Assembly: GCF_030384885.1 (NCBI RefSeq)
Contig: NZ_CP128614.1
Reading direction: 5' to 3' (one strand)
DNA: 64,000 bases
Origin: Escherichia coli
Lineage (GTDB): Bacteria; Pseudomonadota; Gammaproteobacteria; Enterobacterales; Enterobacteriaceae
This document shows positions 44,201 to 47,200 of the stretch, piece by piece. The position numbers are program-made. Positions within the stretch are counted from its first letter, which is position 1; every line of letters begins with the position of its first letter.

Positions 44201-47200
44201 CTTACCTCGGCTCGGCGCGGGATGCGCAGCACCCACCGACGTCCATCGTCGACGGTGGCGATCACGATCCTATAGTCGAGCCCAAGCTCATTGACAGTCA
44301 GCGGGCCATGGAGCTTGAGCCCATGTCGGGCTGCAAGTGCGTACAGTTGGGAGGTATCGGCGGTCGTGACTACGGTCATGATTCACTCCTGAGGGCTTGA
44401 CGGGTTTAGCCACCTAAATGTAACAGTCACGTCGGTTATATTCAATCCGGCACTGTTGCAAAGTTAGCGATGAGGCAGCCTTTTGTCTTATTCAAAGGCC
44501 TTACATTTCAAAAACTCTGCTTACCAGGCGCATTTCGCCCAGGGGATCACCATAATAAAATGCTGAGGCCTGGCCTTTGCGTAGTGCACGCATCACCTCA
44601 ATACCTTTGATGGTGGCGTAAGCCGTCTTCATGGATTTAAATCCCAGCGTGGCGTTGATTATCCGTTTCAGTTTGCCATGATCGCATTCAATCACGTTGT
44701 TCCGGTACTTAATCTGTCGGTGTTCAACGTCAGACGGGCACCGGCCTTCGCGTTTGAGCAGAGCAAGCGCGCGACCATAGGCGGGCGCTTTATCCGTGTT
44801 GATGAATCGCGGGATCTGCCACTTCTTCACGTTGTTGAGGATTTTACCCAGAAACCGGTATGCAGCTTTGCTGTTACGACGGGAGGAGAGATAAAAATCG
44901 ACAGTGCGGCCCCGGCTGTCGACGGCCCGGTACAGATACGCCCAGCGGCCATTGACCTTCACGTAGGTTTCATCCATGTGCCACGGGCAAAGATCGGAAG
45001 GGTTACGCCAGTACCAGCGCAGCCGTTTTTCCATTTCAGGCGCATAACGCTGAACCCAGCGGTAAATCGTGGAGTGATCGACATTCACTCCGCGTTCAGC
45101 CAGCATCTCCTGCAGCTCACGGTAACTGATGCCGTATTTGCAGTACCAGCGTACGGCCCACAGAATGATGTCACGCTGAAAATGCCGGCCTTTGAATGGG
45201 TTCATGTGCAGCTCCATCAGCAAAAGGGGATGATAAGTTTATCACCACCGACTATTTGCAACAGTGCCACGCAAAGACGTAATGAGCAGTGTATCCCCTG
45301 CCACAATACCCTCTTCAGGGATGCTGTCAGTGGACGTCCAGTACTGACCCGCCAGCAAAGAATGAAATCGCTCTAAACGGTCAATGCTATTTTTGCTGAC
45401 CAGGTCACCCATATACTTTTCCTTCCAGATTCGTGTGTTAGGTGAATCATACCAGATTGCCCTTGCCGTCTAATAACGCAGAAAACTGTGAATCCAAAAT
45501 TCCTTAAATTCAAACCTGTCCAATATAAAAGATGGCTCTTTTTCTTATCCAGTGTTAAGCGATAATGCTCAATTTTATTTCATTATTGTCAGAATCAAAA
45601 TAATCTGAAAATAAAAAAGGCTTCAGAATTGAAGCCTCTATATTATACAACGTGAATGTATTTTATTTATCTTTCACCGGGTTCATTTCCCAGTATCTTT
45701 CACGTACGTTTTCTTGGCAATGGTCCGCTCGCTCCGGCGTGTCCCTTTTACGAGTAGCAAATGCTTCAATTACGGCATTCAAGTCTTTTTCTTTGATTTT
45801 AGATCCAACAGGCAAGTTTTCTTCAAACTCAGTCCTTACCAGTTCTTTCGTTTTTTTATAATCGGTTTCACTTTGGATTTCAGGTTTTAAACAAATATCG
45901 GCAACCATCACATCTGATTTGCCCGGGATCGGTTTTTTCCCGTTTTCAGATGCAAGGACCGCAGAGGAGGTAAAGGCGACAGACAGAGTTGCACATAACA
46001 GAAGGTATTTTAATTTCATGACTCACTCCATGATTATCAATGATGGTTGCTCAGACACATCATTTATACCATGCCTGTCACCGAATACGAGATCCCCATA
46101 TTTTGGCTTTAAATATTATCCAATAGGGTTTCATACACCTGGCTTCTGAAAGCAAGGTTCAAGGAGCTTCAGGGGGAAATCAGATTGTTGTCGACCCAGT
46201 ACTTGTGCAAACCTACCACCCAATTCCTGGAAATGGACGAAAGTTCATGCGCCAGTTCACGACAGCATTCAGGCGTAAAAATACGTATGGGTCCTGAAGT
46301 ACCGATATCAACAGACATGATAAACTCCAGAATGTTGCCATGGCATAGGTTGTTTCTCAGCCTGACAATTTCTGCTTCAGGTGTTCTCCCGGCTGCTACC
46401 TTAACCAACATATCCTGCTCGGCTGGAAATGAAAGTAATTCTACCGGCACCCCTTCCTGCTTGGCCTTTCTCAGTAAGGCATTACTCATTACGGAGATAC
46501 CCTCCAAGTCCACCAGCTCAGGAGCTGCATGCTGATCGTTAACTGTTGGTTTCAGCATCAGCGACTTCAACGTAACCATGAGTGATGTTTCAATCCCGTT
46601 CAGGAAGCTCGTACAGGCCGGTATCCATAGTTCGTGATGCAACGCCTCGGTTGCTTGTTTAAAGAACCAGTCAATCACGGGGACAGTGTGATAATCATAA
46701 TAGTGATTTATCTCGCTGAATCTTGACATATAAGCATCGTACTCAGCCTGGTCTTCAGGAGATAAAAAATTTGGTGGGAGGGGCATCAGAATCCTTTCAT
46801 CCTAGCTTGTATACCTTCTTCGTAGGCCAGCTCGCCATTATCGGTAAAAGATGGTTTTTGGTGTTTGTGACAAAGCTTAATTTTTCGTCAGGCTCGATAG
46901 CGTTACCGGAGAGATTTGATCTTTTCTCTGTAACTCGCAATACTGTTTATACATACAGTATGAGAATTCGAGTGTAGCTATGTCTGTTATCCTTGAGCAC
47001 ATTAGCAACAAGCCTTACGAAATGGCACCTTTTTTCAGTGATTTACTGAGCTGTGGAGTGATGAGTCCGTGCGCCGGGCATGAAGATAATGAATTAAATT
47101 TGCATGAATATGTAGTCCGTAACCGCCCCTCAACCTTCTTTGTCAGGGCGGCGGGCCTCAGTATGATCAATGCCGGTATCAATGATGGCGCTATTCTGGT

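Follow-up and report, generated by a model that had tools for sequence, protein, structure and literature searches.

An IS26 deletion scar, probably inherited, on a Tn1721-type insertion in a backbone ORF of an IncHI2 resistance plasmid of Escherichia coli

The resistance island and the two parts of the interrupted ORF

The window, by which we mean the whole 64-kb stretch of E. coli DNA that was analysed, contains a 40.5-kb resistance island that lies between two parts of one backbone ORF (Table 1). The island carries the resistance genes CTX-M-14, fosA3, aac(3)-IVa, aph(4)-Ia, sul2, floR, NDM-6 and ble together with sul1, qacEdelta1, aadA, dfrA12 and mph(A)-mrx-mphR, and its mobile elements are five IS26, IS1006, ISCR1, ISCR2/ISVsa3, ISAba1 and TnAs3. 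The flanks of the window matched hundreds of large conjugative plasmids typed as IncHI2A/MOBH, and since they are collinear with typed IncHI2 plasmids the backbone is that of an IncHI2 plasmid. The nearest complete plasmid is pWL164-blaNDM-6 (NZ_CP128643.1, 227,970 bp, E. coli WL164, human, China), which encodes RepHI2 and the trh/htd transfer genes. It matched positions 3000-27999 of the window at 100% in one piece and showed 3 differences over the first 49,000 bases, and its RefSeq annotation transfers one-to-one to window coordinates. This record came from the E. coli genome collection; in PLSDB, the best matches listed for an 8-kb probe from the island included no IncHI2 record.

Table 1. 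Features at and between the two island boundaries, in window coordinates
Feature	Position	Strand	Details
3' remainder of the backbone ORF, nt 741-1167	4337-4763	-	Alignments to pSH111_227 and p19M12
Surviving copy of the Tn1721 target duplication, 5 bp	4759-4763	-	TTTAA on the gene strand, nt 741-745
38-bp Tn1721 inverted repeat, IRR type	4764-4801	+	GGGGAGCCCGCAGAATTCGGAAAAAATCGTACGCTAAG; read directly from the sequence
3' part (1.5 kb) of Tn1721 (TnAs1-family) tnpA	4797-6313	-	NF033527, Tn3-family transposase, profile positions 466-954, E = 2e-223
Resistance island, 40.5 kb, between the two ORF halves	4764-45268		NCBIfam scans and RefSeq annotation
Boundary IS26, 820 bp	44449-45268	-	Terminal repeats GGCACTGTTGCAAA, 14 bp, perfect, one per end
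tnp26 of the boundary IS26	44501-45205	-	234-aa Tnp26, single ORF, one substitution G184N (codon AAC)
56-aa fusion ORF: 48 native codons, then 8 codons and a stop from the IS26 end	45242-45412	-	ORF list
5' stub of the backbone ORF, codons 1-48, nt 1-144	45269-45412	-	Equals nt 1-144 of the p19M12 gene

At the right boundary the native part of the ORF is 144 nt long and ends at 45269 against the end of IS26. The start codon ATG of the stub (45412-45410) has a GGAAGGA ribosome-binding motif upstream of it in the window sequence. The preliminary description had reported here a minus-strand gene cut short after about 46 codons by the fifth IS26 copy, and this was borne out: the stub meets an IS26, the fifth true copy in the window, and with 48 native codons counted the earlier figure was essentially right. 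RefSeq labels the 56-aa fusion ORF as the hypothetical protein WP_152919720.1 in related and near-identical records and does not mark it as a pseudogene; in near-identical pWL164-blaNDM-6 it is annotated at the coordinates of the stub.

At two of its 820 bases, IS positions 207-208, the boundary IS26 is unlike the four further copies in the window, and this change gives Tnp26 an N residue instead of G. In the near-identical record its transposase is named IS26-family by RefSeq. The sequences flanking the element, TTCAATCC and ACGCAAAG, do not match and it is thus without an 8-bp target-site duplication. No IS26 copy of the window had matching 8-bp flanks, and neither a direct nor an inverted partner of the octamer ACGCAAAG was found beside the other copies. 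The missing duplication is expected after an IS26-mediated rearrangement and is no argument against the identity of the element. Another element, the sixth with these terminal repeats (24753-25571), is no true IS26: it is only 75.6% identical to IS26 and is assigned by RefSeq to the IS1006 family.

At the left boundary the preliminary description had seen no remainder of the gene matching at 4764. This did not hold, because the 427 bp that end exactly at that boundary are nt 741-1167 of the same gene. They were identical at 427 of 427 positions to p19M12, and the stretch 4104-4763 that contains them showed one mismatch in 660 bp to pSH111_227. In RefSeq this 3' remainder is a separate 128-aa hypothetical protein (WP_181728339.1) that starts at an internal ATG (4723). 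Next to it lies a Tn1721 inverted repeat of the IRR type, inside which a partial tnpA terminates; this tnpA, for RefSeq an incomplete transposase of the TnAs1 family, is truncated at 6314 by an inverted IS26. The repeat at 4764-4801 is the original left end of the island, and IRR against nt 741 of the gene is still the original joint. The other repeat, IRL, is absent from the window, in which IRR is the sole surviving end.

The ORF before the deletion and the extent of the loss

When the 48 residues of the stub were used in tblastn, longer homologues were found. In pSH111_227 (NC_019114, IncHI2), which is free of the island, the gene is 1167 nt long and encodes 388 aa, and it is followed by genes of 175, 135 and 153 aa that are those at the left end of the window. 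The gene order on both flanks of the window is collinear with pSH111_227 and with p19M12. When both boundaries were aligned to pSH111_227, as the preliminary description had proposed for an island-free relative, the stub corresponded to nt 1-144 (the right-boundary alignment had 2 mismatches in 245 bp) and the left part to nt 741-1167. A loss was thereby confirmed, and the remainder of the gene was found to be present at the left edge. The loss against the island-free relative is nt 145-740, or 596 bp, and becomes 601 bp (nt 145-745) if one adds the copy of the target duplication that went with it. All of it falls within the one ORF whose ends flank the island, and no other backbone gene is gone. 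"Insertion plus deletion" as earlier proposed is therefore right in outline, but it had been reached on a false premise and with the loss overstated.

The state of the locus before the deletion is seen in p19M12 (NZ_KY689632, IncHI2, Switzerland). The flanks of the window matched this plasmid at 100% over 45269-49412 (4144 bp) and at 99.97% over 1-6316, and such near-identical flanks make p19M12 a valid picture of the locus as it was before. As the gene continues in p19M12 beyond this match of 4144 bp, the stub is not a chance resemblance. In p19M12, nt 1-745 of the gene are followed by the IRL of Tn1721 (GGGGGAACCGCAGAATTCGG), and nt 145-745, which are gone from the window, are contiguous with the part that the window retains as the stub. 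The IRL joint reads GGTATTTAA up to the junction and GGGGGAACC after it (in a longer reading GGTATTTAA and then GGGGGAACCGCAGAATTC). IRR adjoins nt 741 onward, about 32 kb beyond the IRL joint, and the joint there reads GGGCTCCCC and then TTTAAGATT (in a longer reading GGGCTCCCC and then TTTAAGATTTTGG). The pentamer TTTAA (nt 741-745) thus flanks both IRL and IRR, a 5-bp target duplication of the kind that insertion of a Tn3-family element is expected to make. Since TTTAA is duplicated in relatives, the island began as a simple Tn1721-type insertion. Compared to p19M12, the window is without the IRL transposon end and without the 601 bp of gene nt 145-745, and its mphR-mrx-mph(A)-IS26 module is inverted with respect to the backbone.

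The preliminary description had also raised the case that the remainder lies elsewhere in the plasmid, as an inversion would leave it, and for the interior 596 bp the search was negative. Nothing similar to nt 145-740 was found anywhere in the 64-kb window. Three exact 30-nt probes from the missing segment gave 0 matches in the remaining ~164 kb of pWL164-blaNDM-6, covered as four stretches in which such probes did match positive controls, and the absence from the rest of the plasmid is read through this near-identical relative, 3 bases different. No IS26 terminal repeats were found in pWL164-blaNDM-6 outside the part equivalent to the window. Because there are no octamer partners in the window, no probe matches and no record of the intermediate joint in PLSDB, the interior 596 bp appear, on the sequences compared, to have been deleted and not relocated.

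The 388-aa ORF is itself a lineage-specific fusion. Its first 719 nt correspond to the beginning of a gene of 3336 nt in R478-like IncHI2 plasmids; the 1111-aa product of that gene has the same N-terminus as the stub, and this form is also annotated in IncHI1 plasmids. The last ~450 nt of the 388-aa ORF are the 3' part of a separate 163-aa gene that lies about 3.8 kb downstream in R478-like plasmids. The fusion means that the locus already had a deletion before the transposon arrived, which argues for its dispensability. The ancestor of the 128-aa ORF at the left boundary is this 163-aa gene of R478-like plasmids (WP_000636790.1). An IncHI1 plasmid also has an ORF of 128 aa, downstream of the long gene, which showed no similarity to the left-boundary ORF and was rejected as its homologue. 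No Pfam family was found for the 388-aa form, the 1111-aa form or the neighbouring small ORFs.

Distribution of the locus states in PLSDB

The uninterrupted 1167-nt gene was found in 16 PLSDB records and the left IRR joint in 619. The joint of IRL with TTTAA was complete in 44 records, that is p19M12 and at least 43 others in which nt 1-745 abut IRL, and partial in 8. The missing 596-bp segment (nt 145-740) was found at 99% identity or more in 69 records. The exact joint of IS26 with nt 144 was found in at least 315 records, counted at 80% coverage or more of a 291-bp probe spanning the joint, and those among them that were listed are 100% identical and have the same stub allele. The hosts are Escherichia, Salmonella, Klebsiella, Enterobacter and others from several continents. 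Roughly 250 plasmids with the IRR joint show neither of these two states at the right end.

Plasmids pSTM6-275, pEGY1-MCR-1 and pLS61394-MCR resemble the window in the IS26-nt 144 joint, WP_152919720.1, the adjacent backbone genes and umuDC, whereas they differ from it on the inner side of IS26. Where the window has mph(A), pSTM6-275 has a truncated sul1, pEGY1-MCR-1 a fragment of aac(3)-II and pLS61394-MCR has oqxB-rrf2; the allele of the IS26 at the joint also varies among the plasmids that share it, these included. An identical outer joint with differing inner DNA and differing IS26 alleles indicates that the joint is old and inherited and that the interior is still being reshuffled. From the base-identical joints and the shared backbone alleles we infer that the joint in these at least 315 plasmids probably had a single origin.

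How the IS26-nt 144 joint arose

The structure is very probably the result of a Tn1721-type insertion that was followed by an inherited IS26 deletion of the IRL end and nt 145-745. In this course of events a Tn1721-family transposon inserted into nt 741-745 of the 388-aa ORF and duplicated TTTAA, and the joint of IRL with nt 745 was later destroyed, leaving IS26 against nt 144 as it is now. The likely agent is an IS26 inside the island that would have undergone intramolecular replicative transposition in cis into the adjoining backbone (nt 144/145), by which the DNA between the IS and its target would be removed in one step with no 8-bp duplication left. The joint was then very probably passed on to a large plasmid clade, in which the DNA on the inner side may have been swapped repeatedly by IS26-mediated exchange. 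When IS26 transposes replicatively in cis, into the same molecule, the intervening DNA is deleted and no flanking duplication is made, as has been described (He et al. 2015, PMC4471558). The window is like that adjacent deletion in that IS26 abuts a truncated gene with no 8-bp duplication and in that close relatives still have the lost DNA, joined directly to the retained flank, and nothing about it is unusual in this respect. The final structure is the same for a deletion in cis, for an insertion followed by recombination between IS26 copies, and for an inversion followed by loss. The one-step deletion in cis is the most likely of these routes, being the most economical, and is preferred over insertion plus recombination because one event suffices where two would be needed. 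Indirect support for it comes from PLSDB, in which no record has the intermediate joint.

The preliminary description had held that the island replaced a stretch of backbone and was not a simple insertion, the rest of the gene being gone with nothing matching at the left boundary. The part of this that stood is that 596 bp of the gene are absent. As an account of the locus it is extremely improbable, since nt 741-1167 are in place and end at the boundary, both flanks are collinear with pSH111_227 and p19M12, and the TTTAA duplicated in relatives marks an origin by simple insertion, after which the loss was small. A rather more serious possibility, though still an unlikely one, is that IS26 inserted at nt 137-144 with an 8-bp duplication and that recombination, or excision by Tnp26, then took place with an IS26 of the island in direct orientation. 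This would leave the same final joint with the same missing duplication, and recombination between IS26 copies does occur here, as the boundary IS26 with G184N is unlike the other four and the allele at the joint varies between plasmids. Against it, two events are needed where one is enough, and the intermediate joint that it predicts (gene nt 137-336 against the other IS26 end), searched for with a synthetic probe, was covered by 0 PLSDB records.

It is doubtful that an inversion came first, with a transposition in trans into nt 137-144 that moved the remainder of the gene into the island beside an inverted IS26, from where it was later lost. Such an event would yield the order gene(1-144)-IS26-mph(A)-mrx-mphR, and the module does lie opposite to its orientation in p19M12. 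However, no inverted octamer partner lies beside any IS26 of the window, the 596 bp were found neither in the window nor in the remainder of the nearest complete plasmid, the predicted inversion joint was found in 0 PLSDB records, and with unrelated inner neighbours at the same outer joint the mph(A) module need not be original. The inverted mphR-mrx-mph(A)-IS26 module is by itself what an inversion in trans would give and as such runs against a deletion in cis. Since the inner neighbours vary so much in other plasmids, the module is an unreliable witness to a history of inversion. That the joint arose many times at a hot spot for IS26 and was not inherited is highly improbable. The locus has been hit more than once, as IS26 truncates the homologous 1111-aa gene at another position in pMCR-SCNJ07 of the R478-like lineage. 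Yet at least 315 records have the joint, those listed being 100% identical with the same stub allele, and these records are overwhelmingly large Enterobacterales plasmids. Nor is a strict target sequence known for IS26. The reading of a single Tn1721-type insertion, shortened by IS26 and then inherited, is the one that we retain.

Implications for the IncHI2 plasmid family

IncHI2 plasmids have complex resistance loci built on Tn1721-type transposons, an ST4 plasmid (PMC7355605) being one example. The island in the window is like the Tn1721 and Tn1721-Tn21 hybrids (Tn3 family, TnAs1 in ISfinder) of IncHI2 resistance loci in its 38-bp repeats, in a tnpA that ends in the repeat, in the 5-bp target duplication and in an interior made up of integrons and IS26-bounded modules. 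The insertion site differs: in the window it is a hypothetical backbone ORF upstream of umuDC, whereas in PMC7355605 it is tnsA of a Tn7-like element. Passages of papers on IncHI2 plasmids describe IS26 and Tn1721 activity (PMC7355605, PMC9019673, PMC6206278, PMC5923156, PMC8407110), and the IS26-nt 144 joint is not described in those passages. Taken as a whole, the structure is an ordinary, routine IS26 scar, inherited widely, on what began as a simple Tn1721-type insertion. It offers little biological novelty, being a textbook scar on the border of a resistance island and present in hundreds of database plasmids.

Upstream of the stub the native region is preserved, and the stub shares its strand with tnp26, the ATG of which (45205) is only 64 nt past the joint; upstream of the truncated ORF there were weak promoter-like matches only. 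Read-through from a backbone promoter could in principle raise expression of the G184N Tnp26, so that the boundary IS26 might serve as an unusually active docking point, although we consider this quite unlikely. If it were true, such a docking point would account for the recruitment of at least four unrelated resistance modules at one conserved outer joint.

A consequence for annotation is that RefSeq lists both fragments of the ORF as independent hypothetical proteins and not as halves of a pseudogene. The IncHI2 resistance-plasmid family is globally spread, and its member in the window carries NDM, CTX-M-14, fosA3 and floR. For this family the joint is a lineage marker, and the successive states of the locus, the intact ORF, Tn1721 with TTTAA and IS26 against nt 144, order its evolution.

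Ancestry of the interrupted backbone ORF

The 388-aa backbone ORF that is split by the resistance island, and that is intact in pSH111_227, is itself the product of an earlier deletion that fused two genes. Nucleotides 1-719 of this ORF derive from the 1111-aa gene of R478-like IncHI2 plasmids. About 3.8 kb downstream, these plasmids carry a distinct 163-aa gene, WP_000636790.1, whose 3' part is the source of nucleotides 717-1167; the fusion joint is in frame. In pMCR-SCNJ07, which is one of the R478-like IncHI2 plasmids, the 1111-aa homologue (L007:394-3795) is cut at its 5' end by a different IS26 at another position, and therefore this locus was struck by IS26 independently in another plasmid lineage. 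The two halves of the split ORF are annotated in RefSeq (PGAP) as independent hypothetical proteins and not as pseudogene fragments, and both labels were found again in other related records.

The boundary IS26 and the mph(A) module

The IS26 at the boundary encodes Tnp26 G184N, the change known as the IS26-v1 variant, with AAC at window 44654-44656 (IS26 positions 207-208), whereas the other four copies in the window have a G codon (GGC) at residue 184. When the window was compared with the near-identical plasmid pWL164-blaNDM-6, there were only 3 differences in 49 kb, of which two lie in the G184N codon, the boundary IS26 of pWL164-blaNDM-6 having the standard codon, and the third is at 28229. 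The G184N difference could have arisen by gene conversion between IS26 copies or by repeat polishing during assembly. The mphR-mrx-mph(A)-IS26 module (window 40896-45268) is 99.9% identical to that of the IncHI2 relative p19M12 (L006:1068-5440) but its orientation relative to the backbone is opposite in the two plasmids.

Other elements of the island

One IS6-family element, 819 bp long, shares its 14-bp terminal repeats with IS26, yet its identity to IS26 is only 75.6%; it interrupts an ISCR2/ISVsa3 copy and adjoins a complete TnAs3 tnpA-tnpR. A further IS6-family transposase gene has the aac(3)-IVa/aph(4)-Ia module on one side and a truncated Tn3-family tnpA on the other. A search of the window for IS26 terminal repeats gave no match at this element, and therefore it does not have the same ends as IS26. 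The blaNDM allele is NDM-6 in pWL164-blaNDM-6. The NDM region is followed by ISCR1 and then by an inverted sul1-qacEdelta1-aadA-dfrA12 array, in which intI1 is truncated by IS26 at 40076 and aadA (37319-38157) is flagged as frameshifted in RefSeq. Because ISAba1 is typical of Acinetobacter, the complete copy in the window is a hint that one segment of the island, although found in an enterobacterial plasmid, came from Acinetobacter.

Coordinates of the split ORF, its sources and island elements
Feature	Position	Description
388-aa ORF and sources	window 4337-4763 + 45269-45412; L002:6001-7167 (pSH111_227); L005:5001-8336 (1111-aa gene); L007:4960-5451 (pMCR-SCNJ07)	
3' half	window 4337-4723	WP_181728339.1, hypothetical protein (RefSeq)
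5' half	window 45242-45412	WP_152919720.1, hypothetical protein (RefSeq)
IS6-family transposase WP_000602738.1	window 13832-14584 (- strand)	
ISAba1, complete	window 17077-18167	directly upstream of sul2
IS6-family element, 819 bp	window 24753-25571	IS1006 family per RefSeq
NDM region	window 30515-33763	truncated IS30-family element (ISAba125-like), blaNDM, ble, trpF, truncated tat/dsbD
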